Shown here in pieces: positions 10,280-62,591 of a stretch of DNA of 64,000 nt. Under the pieces are notes generated by a model. The model did not search any database and was not told the DNA's origin. It saw nothing but the letters and a program-made list of their open reading frames with translations. This DNA is from Candidatus Collierbacteria bacterium RIFOXYD2_FULL_45_13 (GTDB lineage: Bacteria; Patescibacteriota; Microgenomatia; UBA1400; MFAQ01). Where the stretch lies: contig MFAS01000001.1 in assembly GCA_001774685.1 (NCBI GenBank), positions 607,557 to 671,556 on the forward strand, read 5' to 3'. Positions within the stretch are counted from its first letter, which is position 1; every line of letters starts with the position of its first letter. The position numbers and the translations under genes are program-made.

Positions 10280-11860
10280 ATGATAGCCATCCGGGAATTC
10301 GTAAAACTCGACTACCTCGCCTTTAAGGATTGGTTTCGGAAGCAAACTATTTCCAAAGTGATTATCGCCACAGTATATCTTCTGGTACTGATTGGAGTTG
10401 GTTTGGGGATCTACTTTTGGTCAGACGCTTTTATCAAATACGTTGTCCCTTACGAATCTTTCGGACTACTAACTTCACAATATATCCTGAGGGGTTCTTT
10501 TACCTTACTCATGTGGGTTGGTATCTTCAGCTCTCTCATTTCCACCCTCACCTTTCTGCTAACTCCGGACAGGCACCTGGATTTACTACTCACCTTTCCT
10601 CTCTCCACACTATCAATTTCTCTTAAGGCTTCAGCCAGATCGGCTCTCATCAATTTATCCCTGTTTCTTATATCGGTGTTTCCTTTGGTGTTGGCCTTTA
10701 CCAAAAACTTTTTTGGTTCACTTCTTTCTCTAATACTTCTTGTCATTATCACCCAAACGTTCGGCTCCTCTCTCGGTTATCTTTTTTATTTCTTGTTTCG
10801 GAAAAAATATGGCCGATTAATCGCTATCACCTTCGGAGTTTCCATGATTCTTGCTACCGGGATCTTGCTCAAGGTTACTTTTCCACCCCAGCTCAGGCTT
10901 TTGGATGATATTCCAGCCGAAACTTTTTCTGCCTTTTTTAACAGTTTACCCCTGATTAGGGATTGTTGGCTATCTGGCGAGATAATAAAATCCACAGACG
11001 GTTTATTTGGTCCATCGGTATTGTTTTATGCATTCACTCTCGTGACTATAATGATCTCTCTCCTGACGCAGATATGTCTTTTTGTTCCTTGCCGGCAATC
11101 TCAAAGAGTTCACACTTCGTCTACTATCAAGATAAAGTCAAAAATTGGCCACTTCCGCCGAATCTCTCTAATTTCCAAAGACCTTCTTTCGTTTTTTAGA
11201 AATCCTAAAGATGTCAGCTACCTCCTTTTCTTGATCATTATGATCGTATCTTTTTTTGGACTATTTTCCCGAGGTTACCTGGCCAGAGGAGTCACTGAAA
11301 AGTATCTGGTAGACGCTGTGGTTTTTTCCTTCGCTTGGCTGATATTCTTTTCGGGTACCTACGTAATCCGACTTTCTTATCCACTCATGGTCAATGAGGG
11401 TCAGTCAAAATGGTGGTTGTTTACCCTGCCCATAGCTTCTACACGGATACTTCAGTCAAAGGTCTCATCCTCTTTAATTTTGAGTTTACCTCTACTATCT
11501 TTGGGTTTGCTTGAGTGGCAGATACTTCCCTTTAGTGTAAACACTGCCTTTTTTGTTCTTCTTAGTGTCATTGGCATTACCTCATTGGCTGTCGCTCTTC
11601 CGCTAATTGGCTCTCTTTTTCTTGACTTTACGGCTTGTTACAATCCCGAAAAGGCCAGCACTAGCCTCAGTGGCTTACTTTCGGTTGTTTTTGTCTGCTC
11701 GGTGGGGGCTTTGGGAGGATATTTGGCCTCGCAGTTCATGGGTGTGGCCATTAGCCCAGCCACCGCCATCAACGCCTTCCTCACCGAGAGTCTGGTGGTC
11801 ACAGCCTTTGTCTGGTTTTTGGCCATACGTTACTTAGAAAGATACAAGCTGGATATTTAG
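10280..11860 (+). CDS. ABC transporter permease-like polytopic membrane protein
   Basis: At least ten predicted TM helices. The start is 2 nt after the ATPase stop codon. The longer ORF-track start at 10229 overlaps the ATPase gene. Confidence 0.6.
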   Translation: MIAIREFVKLDYLAFKDWFRKQTISKVIIATVYLLVLIGVGLGIYFWSDAFIKYVVPYESFGLLTSQYILRGSFTLLMWVGIFSSLISTLTFLLTPDRHLDLLLTFPLSTLSISLKASARSALINLSLFLISVFPLVLAFTKNFFGSLLSLILLVIITQTFGSSLGYLFYFLFRKKYGRLIAITFGVSMILATGILLKVTFPPQLRLLDDIPAETFSAFFNSLPLIRDCWLSGEIIKSTDGLFGPSVLFYAFTLVTIMISLLTQICLFVPCRQSQRVHTSSTIKIKSKIGHFRRISLISKDLLSFFRNPKDVSYLLFLIIMIVSFFGLFSRGYLARGVTEKYLVDAVVFSFAWLIFFSGTYVIRLSYPLMVNEGQSKWWLFTLPIASTRILQSKVSSSLILSLPLLSLGLLEWQILPFSVNTAFFVLLSVIGITSLAVALPLIGSLFLDFTACYNPEKASTSLSGLLSVVFVCSVGALGGYLASQFMGVAISPATAINAFLTESLVVTAFVWFLAIRYLERYKLDI

Positions 11861-55834: not shown

Positions 55835-56029
55835 GGCAGGTTCCCGCTCCAGAATTCATCTAAACCCCAGAAATATCAACTCTATAGGATTATTACATGC
55901 CTGAGAAATCTTTGTATGGCAAAAAGATATGGGCGCGAATATACCCTATAGGTGAAAAAATACCAGTTTTGTGGTATCATCACCCTGTTTCCAAAATCGC
56001 ACGATAACAAGGAGAGTCACGTGATCATT

Positions 56030-56386
56030 TTGAATACGGTCTACCCGTGTAAACACTGTAAGCAAGAAGTCGATTCCAACTTCAAGCACTGCCCCGAATG
56101 TGGAGAAGCGCAGGATCATTCCGGCGAAGAACACTTCAATATCTTCAAGAGTTTCCGAGGCGGCGGAGTCTACAACATGACCTATGGCGCCACCATCCTA
56201 ACTTGGGAAGACATCGTAGAGCTTGCGAAAGAGCAGGCTGGTACTGGGTACTTCATTGGCTCGTTCATTCCTGCAAAACAGGGACAAGAGCACCATATCC
56301 AAATCGTCAAGTGGATTCCCGTAGTCAACGGTGAACCTGGACTCGATCAGGGCGCGCAAAACATCGAGATCACCAATCTCGAATAA
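56030..56386 (+). CDS. Hypothetical zinc-ribbon protein (CxxC...CxxC)
   Basis: A GTG start preceded by AAGGAGAG. CKHCKQEV...CPECGE. The ORF-track ATG at 55952 lacks an RBS. Confidence 0.45.
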   Translation: MNTVYPCKHCKQEVDSNFKHCPECGEAQDHSGEEHFNIFKSFRGGGVYNMTYGATILTWEDIVELAKEQAGTGYFIGSFIPAKQGQEHHIQIVKWIPVVNGEPGLDQGAQNIEITNLE

Positions 56387-56440: not shown

Positions 56441-56800
56441 AAAAACTTGCGAGGCTGGTGGGAAAGATCCGTCTTCGGTCGAACTACATTCGCCTCAATA
56501 ACGGCCTCGCCAGCCTCGTTATGAAACTGCTTCCGACTGTTCAAATCCCATATTTGGCAAATAAAAAACTCCACATAAAGGAGAGCTTTTCACTTGCGAG
56601 GCTGACGGGATTCCCCTCAGTAACCCCGCCTCGGCGGAATTCTTCGGGACCTGTCTCGCCAAAACCGTTACGGGTTTGGCTCCGACATTCGAATCCCATA
56701 TTTGGCCATAAAAAAATCCCTCCACAAGGGAAGGATTTTTCATGGCGAGGCTGACGGGATTCGAACCCGTGACCTTCTCCGTGAAGTGGCGATGACAACC
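56441..56800. repeat. Three tandem degenerate copies (~150-bp period) of a tRNA-Asp 3'-end-derived att core (GCGAGGCTG[A/G][C/T]GGGA...), each followed by a conserved ATCCCATATTTGGC...hairpin-T-run module
   Basis: Cores begin at 56449, 56596 and 56745. The third copy (56745-56784) matches the 3' 40 nt of tRNA-Asp (62518-62591) with compensatory T-stem changes. Confidence 0.7.
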
Positions 56801-57005: not shown

Positions 57006-57827
57006 ATGAATTCGCTTGTTCCAGTTAGTGACCCTGATGTCAAATTTGATTTTTCAGATGTTGACTTCGACAAGTCCTTTCCCTCAAAGTCCACTGTCAT
57101 TTTGAGCACTATGTGTGCAAATGTGGCTGTAATGGGCGTGCCAGGACTCAACGCTGTTCGTGTTGTCGCTCGCGGTAACCACTCCACTGAACTCGATATT
57201 CAAACCAGTGGTTCAGAAATGAAGATTTCTGCACCTTTGGACTATGGTCAATCCATGAATACGGGCGGGAATGTTTTCATTTCTGGCTCTGGCATTAATA
57301 CCATCAATGGCGTGCTCTATATGAACGGACGCGCGGTCGATACGAGCAACCCGATGATGATGCTCGTCATGGTTCCCGTCGGCACCTCAATTAAGGTTGG
57401 ACTCGTGCTCGGTGTGAAAGTGGTCATCCGTGGCGTACAAGGTGAACTCGAAGCCAAGCTTCAGGGTGTCACCAACGTTGAGGCAGATTACCTCACTAGC
57501 GCAGACATTCATGTCTCCGGCACGGGAAGCTTCAAATGCCAAACGATTGAAGGAGACAGCCTCACTGTCAAAATCAGTGGCATGGGCAATTCGACAGTCG
57601 AATCGGGCAAAGTCACTACGTTCCAGGCACAAGTTTCTGGTATGGGTGGCATATCCTTTGGTGGCGAAGCCGTCAACGCCGACCTGTCTGTCAGTGGCAT
57701 GGGTTCGATTAACCTCTTTGCCTGCACTGGACAGTTGAAGAAAAAGAAATCTGGAATGGGAAATATCAGCGTATTGAAGGACATGTCTGCCAAATCTGGC
57801 AAATCATCTGGATTCAGCGACTGGTAA
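57006..57827 (+). CDS. Beta-rich repeat protein, putative adhesin-like (DUF2807/DUF4097-type 'GIN' repeats)
   Basis: Repeated SG(M/S)G-x-(I/V) strands (VSGTGSF, ISGMGNS, VSGMGGI, VSGMGSI, SGMGNI). The RBS is GGAGG. Confidence 0.5.
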   Translation: MNSLVPVSDPDVKFDFSDVDFDKSFPSKSTVILSTMCANVAVMGVPGLNAVRVVARGNHSTELDIQTSGSEMKISAPLDYGQSMNTGGNVFISGSGINTINGVLYMNGRAVDTSNPMMMLVMVPVGTSIKVGLVLGVKVVIRGVQGELEAKLQGVTNVEADYLTSADIHVSGTGSFKCQTIEGDSLTVKISGMGNSTVESGKVTTFQAQVSGMGGISFGGEAVNADLSVSGMGSINLFACTGQLKKKKSGMGNISVLKDMSAKSGKSSGFSDW

Positions 57828-58848: not shown

Positions 58849-59058
58849 ATGAGAGAGTACAAAATATCTAGAAATGTTGGTAAAAGAATCAGAGTAATCC
58901 GCCGGAAACAGGCACTTACTCAGGAAGAGTTATCTGGAAGACTAAATATCCATGTCTCAACACTTGGCAGAATAGAGAGGGGTGAAAGTAATCCACCCAT
59001 ACAAACAATAAACCGAATCGCCCAGGCCCTAAAGGTAAAACCAAAGGAACTATTTTAA
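58849..59058 (+). CDS. XRE-family helix-turn-helix transcriptional regulator
   Basis: LTQEELSGRLNIHVSTLGRIERGESNP. Confidence 0.8.
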   Translation: MREYKISRNVGKRIRVIRRKQALTQEELSGRLNIHVSTLGRIERGESNPPIQTINRIAQALKVKPKELF

Positions 59059-59158
59059 ATTTTCCTTATTTGGTCAATACGCACTTTTTACCCATTGATA
59101 CGATTTGATATATTCGGTATACTCAGCGGGTACTTTAATCTAATCCAAGGAGGTCATC

Positions 59159-59932
59159 ATGAGCCAATGGCTAGAAACCCATTGTGGTTGGTGTCATACC
59201 ACCATTGCTTATCTACCAGAATGGTCACATATACCCGAGTACTGCAAATATTGTAATGAGTGGCTGGAAAAAGACTGTCTCAATCCGCACTGTCCTGGCA
59301 GAATAAAATATAAAGTTTACTGGTCAAATATTCACGACTACTGTACCTGCAAAGGCTGGTACGAAATCAAATGTTCCCATTGCTACCAGTACTTTAGTGT
59401 CAACGACCAATGGGACAACAAGCCAGAGTATTGTTCCAGTTGTCGCGAATGGAAAGAAAAAGCTTGTGCTAATCGTCACTGCAATGGCAAAGTCCGATAC
59501 AAAGATTTTTGGGATAACAAACCGGACTACTGCACCTGCAAAGGTTGGTATGAGGTTCGCTGTAGCAACTCAAACTGTCGCAATACTATTTCTGTTCACT
59601 CCTCTTGGTCAAATGTGCCTGAGCACTGCAAGGACTGTAATTCTTGGCATGAAAAGGCATGTGCCACCAGTGGGTGTACCGAAAAAGTTTCTTATAAACC
59701 ATCTTGGAGTAATCCACCCGAGTACTGTGATACCTGTCGAAAGTTGGGTGGTAGTCGTAGAGACCCATGGAATGACCCCAGAAACGTAGTGGAAGGAATC
59801 GGCCCCAATGCAAGTGGAGTTTGGGGTCAAAAAATCATGGGTGGCCCCGATAAGGGGTTACATCGTGGCTATGACCCAGACAAAATTCGTGAATTTGAGG
59901 CTGGAAAAGATTATGAGAGGAGAAAGCGCTGA
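59159..59932 (+). CDS. Cysteine-rich repeat protein (about six tandem ~33-aa W-x-N-x-P-[ED]-Y-C...C...W...K-x-C units); novel putative zinc-binding repeat protein
   Basis: Repeats such as WSHIPEYCKYCNEWLEKDCLNPHC, WDNKPEYCSSCREWKEKACANRHC, WSNVPEHCKDCNSWHEKACATSGC and WSNPPEYCDTCRK. The RBS is AAGGAGG. A strong terminator follows. Confidence 0.6.
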   Translation: MSQWLETHCGWCHTTIAYLPEWSHIPEYCKYCNEWLEKDCLNPHCPGRIKYKVYWSNIHDYCTCKGWYEIKCSHCYQYFSVNDQWDNKPEYCSSCREWKEKACANRHCNGKVRYKDFWDNKPDYCTCKGWYEVRCSNSNCRNTISVHSSWSNVPEHCKDCNSWHEKACATSGCTEKVSYKPSWSNPPEYCDTCRKLGGSRRDPWNDPRNVVEGIGPNASGVWGQKIMGGPDKGLHRGYDPDKIREFEAGKDYERRKR

Positions 59933-59960
59933 GACCCGAAAGGGTCTCTCTTTTTGTTTT
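59931..59960 (+). terminator. Rho-independent terminator (GAGACCC-gaaa-GGGTCTC followed by a T-rich run)
   Basis: A perfect 7-bp stem, GNRA-like loop and T-run. Confidence 0.7.
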
Positions 59961-59972
59961 ATAATACTAGCC

Positions 59973-60362
59973 ATGGATACCAATTATTTTTTGGACAACA
60001 AACTCGACTGCAACAAAGATAATCCTATTTATGTGGGATATTTGGCTGACCTAAAAGACCTATTTTTGGAAGTCCAAAAGCTGACTGAAGACAATAAAAC
60101 AGACGAAGCTAAGGATTTACTAATGGACAGTGAGGGAAAGTTCTCTCCAAATCTATACAATATTTCGGAGGAGATAAACGATATTTTTGTCGGTCAACTT
60201 AAAAATGAGACTATCGAGCTTTATATAAATTTTAGAAAATTTAACGAGGAACTATCCAGCGAAAGAGTTAACGACCTCACGGGGAGAGACCTAAATATAT
60301 CAATCAATAGAATTAAGCTTTTTTTGGCACAGGAATTGAGGCTAATAGATAACCTCAAGTAA
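59973..60362 (+). CDS. Hypothetical protein (129 aa)
   Basis: An ATG just after the terminator. The longer ORF-track start (59808) overlaps the Cys-rich gene and its terminator. Confidence 0.4.
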   Translation: MDTNYFLDNKLDCNKDNPIYVGYLADLKDLFLEVQKLTEDNKTDEAKDLLMDSEGKFSPNLYNISEEINDIFVGQLKNETIELYINFRKFNEELSSERVNDLTGRDLNISINRIKLFLAQELRLIDNLK

Positions 60363-61423
60363 AATCCTAAAAAAAATTATAAAAATATTTTACCTTTCAA
60401 AAGCATGGTGAGACCGAGCTTTTGGTATAGCTGTGGTACTAGCTTAGTGGGTAATTCTGTGCGGGGGGTCGAGTTTTTATAACTCAAACTGCAGGGAATA
60501 TTATGCGGAAAAATAAACACCCAAAATCTATCCCAAATTATAACAGCTTACGCATGAAGCTTATTAATATAAGTCATAATATCTTTGTTATATATCTTTT
60601 GTGCCTAATACTTGACACAAAAGCCACCTTGTACGACGTATGCGGTCATAAACCAATGAGGTGATATCTATATCAAAACATGTCATTTGGTAATTTTCCG
60701 CAAAAGCTCCAAATCTACAAAGGATTATATTTTAATTATCTCCGCTAATCGATTGTTTACTTAGTTACAATCTTTTTGTAGTAGTGTTAAGTTGAGACTT
60801 GCTTACGCAGACCTCCCCTTGAGTCTCGTGTTTTAGGCACGCGACTTGGACTAGAAATTGTACTTAGCAGACACAAGCGGTATTTATTGCCACGCAGCAT
60901 GGTGAAAAATACGAGGTCCAAGTGACAGCGCACTATAGCTAATGTACTGTGACTTAGCGACCCCGACCATGTTCGTAAAGTATTAAGCCGTTCGATTGTA
61001 GTTTAACCGGCTATTTACAGTTCTATATTAAGATTTTCTTCTTTTCTGTAACTTCCTTTACGACCTCCCCAGGACTGAGTTTCCTCCATGCCCTGACTAC
61101 GAATGGTTTATCCTATTGGGTTGTCGAATTTGCTTGTTGCCTTAAAGTTCTAGCTTTTGTGAGAATTAGTTTGTGAAACCAGTGGCACTCACGAGGACGG
61201 TTTTCATTCGACCTCTTTATAGGGAACCTGAGAGTTATTGAGTCTTTCTAAGCTTCCTAGAATGCATGTCGGCATATCTATAAGTCAATAGATAAAACTA
61301 AAACCATTCTGTCAACCCTATCAAAACATATCAGTTTTAAATTTCTCTTAACTTTAAGATAACGATGAATAAAAATGGTAGCCCTGAGGCAGTAGATTAG
61401 CCACAGAAAGCCTTTCAAATAAC

Positions 61424-62425
61424 TTATTTAAGATTGATATGTAAAGCAAGTGAACTGTTTGGGTCAAGCTCACATTTCACAACAAACCGACAATCATTTT
61501 TCATCTCATACTGAACAAAACTAAGTATCCGTTCCAATTTTTCTTTTGGTGATAGTCCTTGCGGAACAATTGTCGTTCCATTGAGAGAAATTGCCAAGTC
61601 ATAAACATTAAGATGGCTGTAAACAGTGTCTAAAATTCTTGTGTCAGTGTGGCGCATTAGTCGTCGTGCTTGACCATAGGGGACACCATCGCGAAGTAAG
61701 GTTGTGGCATAAACATGGCGCAAGCTGTGAACTCTGATTTTCTGTTTTATGTCCAACTTTTTGCAACCCCTAGTCATAGAATTTTGCAACATTTTTTCGC
61801 TTATTCTAAAAATCAAGCCACCCCTGTTAATTCTCGGCCTAAGCATTTTCAACATATCATTTGCGATGGGTAGTTTATCTCTGTGTCCACCTTTTCCAAA
61901 AACCCAAAAGGTTTTTTCTTCAAGATTAAAGTCATCGGCTTTGAGTCCACGAAGCTCAAAGTTTCTCAATCCAGATTTTGAGGCAAAAATTAGGCAATCT
62001 TTCGCCTCTCGTTTTTGTCGTCGTACTGCCTTGTTGTCATTTTTCAGCACCTCACATCCTGCCTCTATTATCATTTGGGCAGTCTCAAAGGGGACAATTT
62101 GTATTTCTTCTCTGTGTAGTTTTGGCAGTTTAACCTTTTGTCCCCAGTTTTCCGAAATACTTCCACCCTCAAAATGCCAAGAAATAAAAGCTCGAACTAC
62201 TTTTGAATCTGAAACCATGGAGCTTGGTTTCCACCCCAAGTCAGTGAGATAGGCAATATAGCCACGAAAAGTCTCTGGTGACAGTTCTGAGTTACCTAGG
62301 AATTTGGAAAGGCGAGTTAGTGTTTCTTTCTTACCCTCAATGGTTCTTTTTGTCATACCAGACTCAATCTCGCAAGAGAGTAGGTAATCAGCCATGGTTT
62401 TCTCGACATTAATACATGACGCCAT
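61424..62425 (-). CDS. int: Tyrosine-type site-specific recombinase/integrase
   Basis: The C-terminal catalytic box HSLRHVYATTLLRDGVPYGQARRLMRHTDTRILDTVYSH (R..H..R..Y), adjacent to tRNA-Asp. Confidence 0.85.
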   Translation of the reverse strand: MASCINVEKTMADYLLSCEIESGMTKRTIEGKKETLTRLSKFLGNSELSPETFRGYIAYLTDLGWKPSSMVSDSKVVRAFISWHFEGGSISENWGQKVKLPKLHREEIQIVPFETAQMIIEAGCEVLKNDNKAVRRQKREAKDCLIFASKSGLRNFELRGLKADDFNLEEKTFWVFGKGGHRDKLPIANDMLKMLRPRINRGGLIFRISEKMLQNSMTRGCKKLDIKQKIRVHSLRHVYATTLLRDGVPYGQARRLMRHTDTRILDTVYSHLNVYDLAISLNGTTIVPQGLSPKEKLERILSFVQYEMKNDCRFVVKCELDPNSSLALHINLK

Positions 62426-62517
62426 TGAGCGTTAATCATGTATCGAGGAGAAAAAATTGCTACCACGACACTAAATTGTTATTTTCTATAAAAAGATTGA
62501 TTTACCAATCTTTTTTG

Positions 62518-62591
62518 CGAGGCTGATGGGATTCGAACCCACGACCTTCTCCGTGACAGGGAGACGCGCTAACCAGCTGCGCTACAGCCCC
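62518..62591 (-). tRNA. tRNA-Asp (anticodon GTC)
   Basis: Reverse complement: GGGGCTG-TA-GCGC-AGCTGGTTA-GCGC-G-TCTCC-CTGTCAC-GGAGA-AGGTC-GTGGG-TTCGAAT-CCCAT-CAGCCTC-G. Confidence 0.85.

Follow-up and report, generated by a model that had tools for sequence, protein, structure and literature searches.

The subject of this study is a two-gene cassette on the forward strand of a 64,000-nucleotide (nt) stretch of contig MFAS01000001.1 from Candidatus Collierbacteria bacterium RIFOXYD2_FULL_45_13, a tiny bacterium of groundwater; we call this whole stretch the window and count positions from its first letter. The first gene (59159–59932) encodes a cysteine-rich protein of 257 amino acids (aa), in which an array of six small, predicted zinc units is followed by a cysteine-free tail, and the second encodes a small acidic protein, hereafter partner A. 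When aligned with homologous loci, the array on the one hand and the tail plus partner on the other have discordant histories, so that the protein is, judged by these alignments, a recombination mosaic. We propose, with a probability that we place at about 0.4, that tail and partner would constitute a specific effector-inhibitor pair reminiscent of a toxin and its immunity protein, and that the array would be the constant binding or targeting part. The cysteine-free tail, the co-varying partner and the mosaic evolution, all of which escaped a preliminary description made from the DNA sequence alone, are the most informative features of the system. Homologous loci and proteins are referred to below by L and P numbers, respectively.

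The array consists of six contiguous units of 31–33 aa with the cysteine spacing C-x2/4-C-x16-C-x1/2-C. They were delimited with a profile hidden Markov model (HMM) of the unit, trained on distant relatives alone, the window protein and its 17 closest relatives having been left out; it finds exactly six units in the window protein, at 22–42 bits, against a best score of 9.7 bits among 500 shuffled sequences, and so bears out the six tandem four-cysteine units that the preliminary description had proposed. All six predicted units are encoded on the plus strand. Unit 1 (aa 3–34; 59165–59260; 42.4 bits) carries its cysteines at residues 9, 12, 29 and 32 and is modelled by AlphaFold as strand, knuckle, strand, loop and helix, while unit 2 (aa 34–65; 59258–59353; 22.5 bits), with Cys 40, 45, 62 and 64, is a C-x4-C...C-x-C variant. 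Unit 3 (aa 67–97; 59357–59449; 36.4 bits; Cys 72, 75, 92 and 95) and unit 4 (aa 97–128; 59447–59542; 31.1 bits; Cys 103, 108, 125 and 127) follow, the latter being the last of a conserved N-terminal block, and the array ends with unit 5 (aa 130–161; 59546–59641; 40.6 bits; Cys 135, 140, 157 and 160) and unit 6 (aa 163–195; 59645–59743; 38.4 bits; Cys 168, 173, 190 and 193). The structural unit reads W-x-E-K-x-C-x2/4-C-G-x3-I-x-Y-x3-W-x3-P-x2-C-x1/2-C and the consensus unit K-W-x-E-K-x-C-x2-C-G-x-T-I-R-Y-x2-D-W-x2-I-P-x-Y-C-K-x-C-K; the motif given in the preliminary description had the correct residues but the wrong register, since it started in mid-unit. The spacing C-x2-C-x16-C-x2-C occurs in 225 of the 325 units extracted from the family, and aromatic and basic positions are conserved in each unit. 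Tandem Repeats Finder detects no tandem repeat in the DNA of the gene, and the repeat is therefore, by all appearances, an old one that is visible at the protein level only; a DNA repeat search retrieved merely four 40-nt copies of 63–70% identity.

Beyond unit 6, alignment delimits a basic tail of 62 residues (aa 196–257; 59744–59929, plus strand; isoelectric point (pI) 9.6), which we assign to type T1a; it has the pattern KLGG-RRDPWxDPRN...GPDxGxHRGYDP...REFEAGKDYERRKR and a basic C-terminus, KDYERRKR. AlphaFold predicts four short strands and a helix for it, with a predicted local distance difference test score (pLDDT) that, in blocks of ten residues, is about 68–80 through most of its length, falling to 55 and 47 toward the C-terminus. 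Among the 11 close relatives that were found first, the zinc array is conserved and the C-termini belong to unrelated types, and at least four or five tail types can be told apart among close relatives. Tails of type T1b carry the motif H-[RT]-Y-Y-D...R-S-G and those of type T2 the motif ...DGGHVSGD...YST...; tails of the T1 and T2 types measure 60–90 aa, and hhalign detects no similarity between T1 and T2. When metagenomes were scanned with the tail alignment, all proteins recovered were zinc-array proteins except for one stand-alone tail open reading frame (ORF) of 68 aa (L043), after which comes a 123-aa gene with a weakly partner-A-like N-terminus (E 0.0015 in a one-sequence search). Two suggestions for the identity of the T1 tail were discarded: its likeness to the RNP1 region of an RRM (SF3B4) reached only E 1.3, and an interpretation of its final 30 residues as a beta-beta-alpha-metal nuclease finger requires a helix that T1b tails do not conserve. 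Array and tail meet at a K-L-G-G sequence in all T1a and the closer T1b proteins (K-x-x-G in the divergent P0011 and P0139), a junction that we take to resemble a double-glycine or LxGG cleavage site. As a separate observation, a stand-alone C39-like papain-fold peptidase (Peptidase_C39_2, E 6e-13) is encoded directly 3' of partner A in L013 (1716–2216) and L014 (7379–7882); the two peptidases are 92% identical, and the window has no such gene.

Over about 20 loci, tails and downstream genes form three pairings, namely T1a with partner A, T1b with partner C and T2 with partner B. The first of these, which was assessed for those T1a genes that had downstream DNA to examine, is found in the window and in L013, L014, L016, L003-6, L007-9, L029/30, L038 and L040; in the T1a variant of L031/L032 no partner A homologue was detected downstream. 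Partner C, of 65–79 aa, accompanies T1b in L001, L041 and L042 (L041 versus L001, 44% identical, E 5e-17), and partner B, of roughly 110–123 aa, accompanies T2 in L010-12, L017 and L018/19. The partner genes start 25–60 nt 3' of the tail gene, and all partners are acidic (pI 4.5–5.9). Partner A of the window (59973–60362, plus strand) has 129 aa and a pI of 4.46, and is predicted to be a four-helix bundle (AlphaFold pLDDT 89.4; predicted template modelling score (pTM) 0.83). Its family comprises only 8 clusters in 5.8 billion proteins; no helix-turn-helix (HTH), ribbon-helix-helix or AbrB match was found for it, and Foldseek and a PDB sequence search returned generic helical bundles only, so none of these was taken up.

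The discordance of array and tail is best illustrated by two relatives. L015 shares 92% and 85% identity with the window protein in units 1–4, 39% in units 5–6 and only 16% in the tail, whereas L007 shares 31% and 42% in units 1–4 and 65% in the tail. At the DNA level, similarity to homologous loci begins at about 59077–59095, in the promoter (about 59091 for tail-T2 loci), and similarity to tail-T2 and other non-T1a loci ends at 59550–59554; a mosaic breakpoint would thus lie near nt 59550. Identity between partners is correlated with identity between tails (r = 0.89 over 15 pairs), the partner diverging about twice as fast.

Every locus examined, irrespective of its tail type, has the same layout between the two genes, in which, after the stop codon, come a GC-rich hairpin and its T run, then a TAnAAT box and finally the ATG of the partner. 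The position of the hairpin is constant across homologous modules and the stem sequences differ, so that conservation extends to the structure but not to the sequence. In the window, the hairpin (GAGACCC-GAAA-GGGTCTC, 59931–59948, with the T run extending the element to 59958; plus strand) has a perfect 7-bp stem, a GAAA loop and a folding energy of -13.6 kcal/mol, and resembles an intrinsic terminator. Direct reading places a -10-like TATAAT box at 59960–59965 on the plus strand, 7 nt 5' of the partner A ATG and without a Shine-Dalgarno sequence, and a TAnAAT box 6–9 nt before the partner ATG, again without a Shine-Dalgarno sequence, is present in L013, L014, L016, L007, L017, L018 and L010. 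The combination of hairpin, box and ATG suggests that the array transcript is terminated and that the partner has a separate, leaderless mRNA of its own. The same -10 arrangement is found at about 10% of the long ORFs in the window, hence leaderless expression would be a normal mode for this organism; it is the conservation of this arrangement in the cassette that is noteworthy. In public gene calls, the start of partner A is set too far upstream, which gives products of 178 aa (P0157; 59808–60362) or 149 aa (JGI; 59913–60362), and both calls overlap the end of the Cys-rich gene; we place the start at 59973 because of conservation across homologues and the position of the -10 box.

Promoter, array gene, hairpin and downstream partner travel together. 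Homologous cassettes occur beside an rve integrase with variable flanks, with an FtsK-like gene and a type I restriction-modification system, next to TatC and not far from a Y1 transposase, in the vicinity of sortases, an rve transposase and a DUF2807 gene (L014), and between housekeeping genes; when the other genes of the island that carries the window cassette were looked for around homologues, none was found to accompany them. Given the absence of the island genes and the variety of contexts, it is the cassette itself that appears to be the mobile unit. The preliminary description was thus right to see mobile-element cargo, in that the window copy lies inside an integrase islet in a tRNA-Asp gene, but the gene is not tied to this element.

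The family is small and uncurated: an exhaustive profile search of 1.84 billion cluster representatives retrieved 166 proteins at E <= 1e-3, of which 90 reach E <= 1e-10, and 165 of the 178 proteins collected by then contain 1–7 units. All close relatives with named records belong to Candidatus Collierbacteria, within the candidate phyla radiation (CPR), and no relative was found in 2.9 million viral contigs. One metagenome-assembled genome (MAG) encodes three paralogues with different tails. The MAG records L013, L015-L017 and L019-L021 are titled 'uncultured Pseudomonadales bacterium', although their gene content and closest named relatives are CPR/Collierbacteria-like, and the titles look like placeholders. 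Among distant relatives, zinc units are fused to CDI_toxin_EC869_like, a PD-(D/E)xK toxin domain, in P0063 and P0066, to TIR plus DUF5679 in P0097 and to PNP_UDP_1 in P0149, and P0018 has a GID...EAK motif that is PD-(D/E)xK-like by eye and has no Pfam match; many others pair two units with long coiled coils. In the locus of P0063 (L022), a hairpin and a TATAAT box again precede a further gene, which is unannotated and encodes 196 aa. A small uncurated domain was also seen after or between the zinc units of P0018, P0019, P0024, P0029, P0046 and P0104 (also P0081, P0085, P0114 and P0035), with the motif G-K-H-S-H-x-V-x3-D-G-x4-H-R-D or G-H-G-H-V-I-I-D-D-x-G-x-V-H-Y-V-R-D. This 'HxH' domain has no Pfam match and no detected homology to the window tail; the idea that tails T1 and T2 and the 'HxH...DG...HRD' domain of P0018/19/29/81 are homologous was rejected, hhalign giving probabilities of 0.06–0.7% in the comparisons with T1 or T2 and 14% between the two HxH groups.

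The model that we favour at present, in which tail and partner are an effector and its inhibitor, draws on the likeness of the cassette to polymorphic toxin-immunity systems such as contact-dependent inhibition (CDI), Rhs, colicin and pyocin systems, a concept said to have been set out by Zhang, Aravind and colleagues in 2012. As in these systems, a constant N-terminal region is combined with exchangeable, unrelated C-termini, and a small cognate gene lies directly 3' and changes with the C-terminal type. Also in common are the recombination mosaic and the occurrence of several paralogues per genome, and there are distant relatives that end in CDI_toxin_EC869_like. Colicin immunity genes have their own promoter, as the downstream gene here is predicted to have. 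Further points in favour are the opposite charges of the T1a tail and the partners, the four-helix bundle confidently predicted for partner A, the correlated identities of tail and partner, the stand-alone tail ORF of L043 with its partner-like neighbour, and the homologues that lie near genes of mobile elements. By this model, tail and cognate partner would bind each other specifically, the partner being made from its own leaderless transcript and the array protein from a separate strong promoter and ribosome-binding site. The constant part, the zinc array, would serve in binding or targeting, most likely of nucleic acid, a guess that we base on the fusions to the PD-(D/E)xK toxin domain, TIR and PNP_UDP_1, on the PD-(D/E)xK-like motif of P0018 and on the aromatic and basic positions that each unit conserves. 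The window copy of the cassette would ride as cargo of the integrase islet, 5.8 kb long, at tRNA-Asp. It is conceivable, if distinctly doubtful in this full form, that we are dealing with an undescribed CPR class of polymorphic effector-inhibitor cassettes, in which a shortened treble-clef array targets, recombining unrelated tails act and cognate leaderless acidic partners neutralise, and in which the C39-like peptidase may free the tail at KLGG in some T1 loci.

Several observations weigh against an effector-inhibitor pair. No secretion or trafficking domain or signal was found, that is, neither an N-terminal Pfam domain nor a hydrophobic N-terminus, and in this the protein differs from a classical secreted polymorphic toxin, as it does in having an N-terminal part that is predicted to be a cytoplasmic-type zinc array. 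The T1 and T2 tails match no known toxin or enzyme family and, at 60–90 aa, have no fold that can be recognised as that of a toxin; conservation is higher in the tail than in the partner, and apart from a single invariant His the tail has no obvious catalytic motif. Partner A, for its part, has no fold, Pfam, PADLOC or PHROG match and matches no known immunity or antitoxin family. The terminator-like hairpin separates the two genes, unlike in type II toxin-antitoxin operons, from which the cassette also departs in the separate -10 box between the genes and in a partner that is a helical bundle without a match to a DNA-binding domain. Furthermore, the array is near neutral (pI 7.7), where non-specific nucleic-acid binding would predict a strongly basic protein, several homologues are flanked by housekeeping genes and have no mobile element in their vicinity, and the correlation between tail and partner identities could reflect shared ancestry alone.

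Much of the same evidence can be read in terms of a non-toxic factor of mobile DNA, whose array would coat, escort or recognise DNA or RNA while an element is transferred, established or regulated, and whose acidic partner would be a chaperone or adaptor of the basic C-terminus, a logic resembling that of VirE2 and its acidic chaperone VirE1. The cassettes beside integrases, transposases and an FtsK-like translocase, the small size and acidity of the partner facing a T1a tail that ends in basic KDYERRKR, the conserved aromatic and basic residues of each unit and the fusion of related units to a nuclease domain all fit such a factor, and the pairing of tail and partner suits a chaperone as well as an inhibitor. 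We nevertheless consider this somewhat unlikely, in view of the near-neutral charge of the array, the lack of any detected relative in the viral contigs, the loci without mobile genes nearby and the failure of any other island gene to accompany the homologues; moreover, the presence in a single reduced genome of three paralogues that differ in their tails, together with tail swapping, is more typical of conflict systems.

It is likewise possible to imagine a scaffold or holdase whose modules bind proteins, as do DnaJ-type and other treble-clef fingers, and in which tail and partner, as a constitutive heterodimer, serve CPR cells in housekeeping or regulation. The near-neutral charge of the repeat region, the many distant relatives in which two units are joined to long coiled coils and the loci embedded among housekeeping genes would agree with this, as would a DnaJ-type CxxCxGxG pair, which is, however, present solely at the N-terminus of the closer homologues P0006-P0011 (six family members match DnaJ_CXXCXGXG), whereas GxG follows 0 of the 12 cysteine pairs of the window protein. 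Patchy distribution, several paralogues per genome and recombining tails would be unexpected for a housekeeping factor, and fusions to effector domains (TIR, nuclease and PNP) occur among the relatives, which makes a scaffold quite improbable. Even less can be said for a secreted or surface-binding protein, surface binding having been one guess of the preliminary description, or for a metallothionein-like metal store. The cysteine content of 9.3%, the DUF2807 or GIN 'adhesin head' gene that occurs both in the window islet and near the L014 module, and the C39-like peptidase 3' of the module in L013 and L014 might be cited in favour. Yet the protein has no signal peptide or membrane segment (the highest Kyte-Doolittle value in a 19-residue window is 0.29), and the regular Cys4 spacing and the conserved aromatic core residues point to structural zinc sites rather than metal storage; Cys4 zinc sites are typical of cytoplasmic proteins, and we regard an extracellular or storage role as hardly credible.

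The CPR, or Patescibacteria, have tiny genomes rich in unannotated genes, and little is known of their conflict and host-interaction systems. What is defined here is a coherent uncurated family with a 32-residue W...C-x2-C-x16-C-x2-C unit and a modular array-tail-partner architecture with clear recombination. Should tail and partner indeed be effector and inhibitor, this would add a kind of polymorphic system with a zinc-finger array as its constant region; should they not be, there would still be a new family of the Pfam type, together with a probable link to zf_Tbcl, itself an uncharacterised domain.

This link, and the fold of the unit in general, deserve some comment. AlphaFold models the window protein as small modules arranged like beads on a string (mean pLDDT 76, pTM 0.33), with the first cysteine pair of each unit, for example Cys9/12, placed between two short strands as a beta-hairpin knuckle, and with short helices starting from residues 30, 93 and 191, right after Cys29, 92 and 190, in the units that end in CxxC (1, 3 and 6). 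In the model, the ligands are thus placed as in a treble-clef or zinc-ribbon-like unit, and the prediction thereby supports the fold assigned in the preliminary description. Searches of Pfam, NCBIfam and PHROGs with the window protein gave nothing but sub-threshold noise, no PADLOC-DB v2 model was matched by the Cys-rich protein or by partner A, and the family consensus unit, in a single copy or in three, reached no gathering score in Pfam. When the family profile was searched against PDB sequences, the only candidates were a BED finger and TFIIIC, at a non-significant E of 0.1–0.5. The structure-model search that had been suggested was equally devoid of significant neighbours: for the full model, Foldseek gave a best E of 0.25 against PDB, and against the BFVD viral models a best E of 5.7e-3 at a template modelling (TM) score of 0.13, to phage multi-zinc-finger 'HNH endonucleases'; neither was significant.

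Nevertheless, the view that the repeat has no named family holds only in part, because no curated family matches it and yet the unit probably is a shortened, uncurated remote relative of zf_Tbcl (PF13451), a Pfam 'Probable treble clef domain' without an assigned function. Both have two cysteine pairs and share the C-terminal half-motif aromatic-x3-P-x2-C-x2-C-[KR], and in P0136, P0144, P0131, P0116, P0118, P0055 and P0073 several window-type units are followed in tandem by one longer, zf_Tbcl-type unit, which in P0136 passes the PF13451 cut-off (38.7 versus 24 bits). When the unit profile was aligned by hhalign with the zf_Tbcl-type segments, the probability was 89.5% (E 2e-6, with a 9-residue gap), a score of a kind that can be inflated in Cys-rich profiles. 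With PF13451 itself, at E <= 10 (gathering score 24 bits), neither the window protein nor 1 or 3 copies of the consensus unit gave a match. The two differ in the spacer between the cysteine pairs, which is about 24–25 residues in zf_Tbcl and 16 in the window unit (a 9-residue deletion), and a conserved W-x-E-K linker, like the arrangement in arrays of as many as 7 units, is peculiar to the window type. On account of this probable relationship, the unit is best seen as a variant of a known fold class and not as a new fold; the unit family, its arrays, tails and partners are uncurated and undescribed, and literature searches on PF13451, zf_Tbcl and related accessions, and on CPR polymorphic toxins with zinc ribbons, turned up nothing on the unit family. 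Short C-x2-C...C-x2-C modules are also found in the zinc-ribbon families DZR (PF12773) and DZR_2 and in DUF7571, DUF7564 and DUF7560, the last three of which we take to be haloarchaeal small zinc-finger proteins. Relatives and consensus match these families below threshold, none of them reaches its gathering score for the window protein (the best, DUF7560, scores 14.2 bits against a cut-off of 27), and they have neither the W...W-x3-P signature nor the architecture of a tandem array plus tail.

As for the Cys-rich gene itself, the ORF is as the preliminary description gave it, and the expression signals named there, a strong ribosome-binding site and a perfect terminator, are credible. Its product, which contains 24 cysteines and 15 tryptophans, is recorded at NCBI as a 'hypothetical protein' of Candidatus Collierbacteria (KKT40463.1 / KKU33720.1; the sources are Candidatus Collierbacteria bacterium GW2011 genomes) and is labelled 'Uncharacterized protein' in UniRef, and the exact protein is carried by 23 public contigs, all with an identical context. 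Together with the latter, a dN/dS of 0.05 against the 84%-identical homologue in L013 (dN 0.098, dS about 1.95) indicates that the gene is real and under strong purifying selection. A promoter-like TTGATA-17 nt-TATACT sequence (59095–59123, plus strand) agrees with the consensus at 10 of 12 positions and belongs to a block, TTGATAC...TATACT...AAGGAGGTCATCATG, that is conserved upstream of the gene in L013, L015, L010 and L017; a Shine-Dalgarno sequence read directly as AAGGAGG (59147–59153, plus strand) ends 5 nt 5' of the ATG, and GGAGG is kept in all homologous loci. Promoter, 5' untranslated region and Shine-Dalgarno sequence of the array gene are thus preserved across different genomic contexts. 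Since it has neither signal peptide nor membrane segment and its predicted Cys4 zinc sites are structural, the protein is presumably soluble and cytoplasmic, which disfavours the surface-binding guess.

The islet around the cassette spans about 5.8 kb and contains an integrase, an XRE regulator, a DUF2807 protein and two unannotated genes besides the cassette, at a GC content of 0.37–0.41 against 0.44. One boundary is the intact tRNA-Asp(GTC) gene that would have served as integration target (62517–62591, minus strand; ARAGORN and Rfam), next to which lies the tyrosine recombinase (61424–62425, minus strand; Pfam Phage_integrase, E 3e-17; phrog_1 integrase); the distal boundary, 5.8 kb away, is a direct repeat of the 3' half of the tRNA gene (56745–56784, 37/40 nt, found by repeat search). 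The location on an integrated element, as given in the preliminary description, is thereby confirmed. Integrase, tRNA repeat, lower GC and the XRE regulator are shared with tRNA-targeting tyrosine-integrase islets in general, from which this one differs in being very small and having no phage structural or conjugation genes. The XRE-family HTH regulator (58849–59058, plus strand; Pfam HTH_3, E 8e-15), with 'control protein' or regulator matches in PADLOC and PHROG, lies directly 5' of the Cys-rich gene and is absent 5' of homologues elsewhere; it is an island gene outside the module. The islet occupies the same site in all 23 contigs, among which no empty site or excised form was seen.

A few minor features of the neighbourhood may be added. 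The DUF2807 ('GIN' adhesin-head) protein of the islet is encoded at 57006–57827 and that of L014 at 10844–11671, about 4 kb from the cassette; tblastn detects no similarity between the two. Between partner A and the integrase, about 1.06 kb (60363–61423; GC about 0.37) contain no ORF longer than 53 aa, match nothing in Rfam at a cut-off as loose as E <= 1, show no similarity to the homologous loci retrieved, and could be a decayed gene, a regulatory or attachment-related region, or an RNA. Just outside the islet, a 144-aa ORF (55952–56386) gives sub-threshold matches to Zn_ribbon_15 (E 1e-4) and DZR and is unrelated to the unit family. Two further degenerate copies of the tRNA-Asp 3' end are found at 56592–56635 and 56445–56463, with a spacing of 147–149 nt, and repeats of about 50 nt (56540–56590 and 56688–56738), containing TTC[AG]AATCCCATATTTGGC, lie between successive copies, so that earlier integrations at this tRNA seem to have left, at 56445–56784, a small array of remnants of attachment sites or of the tRNA.

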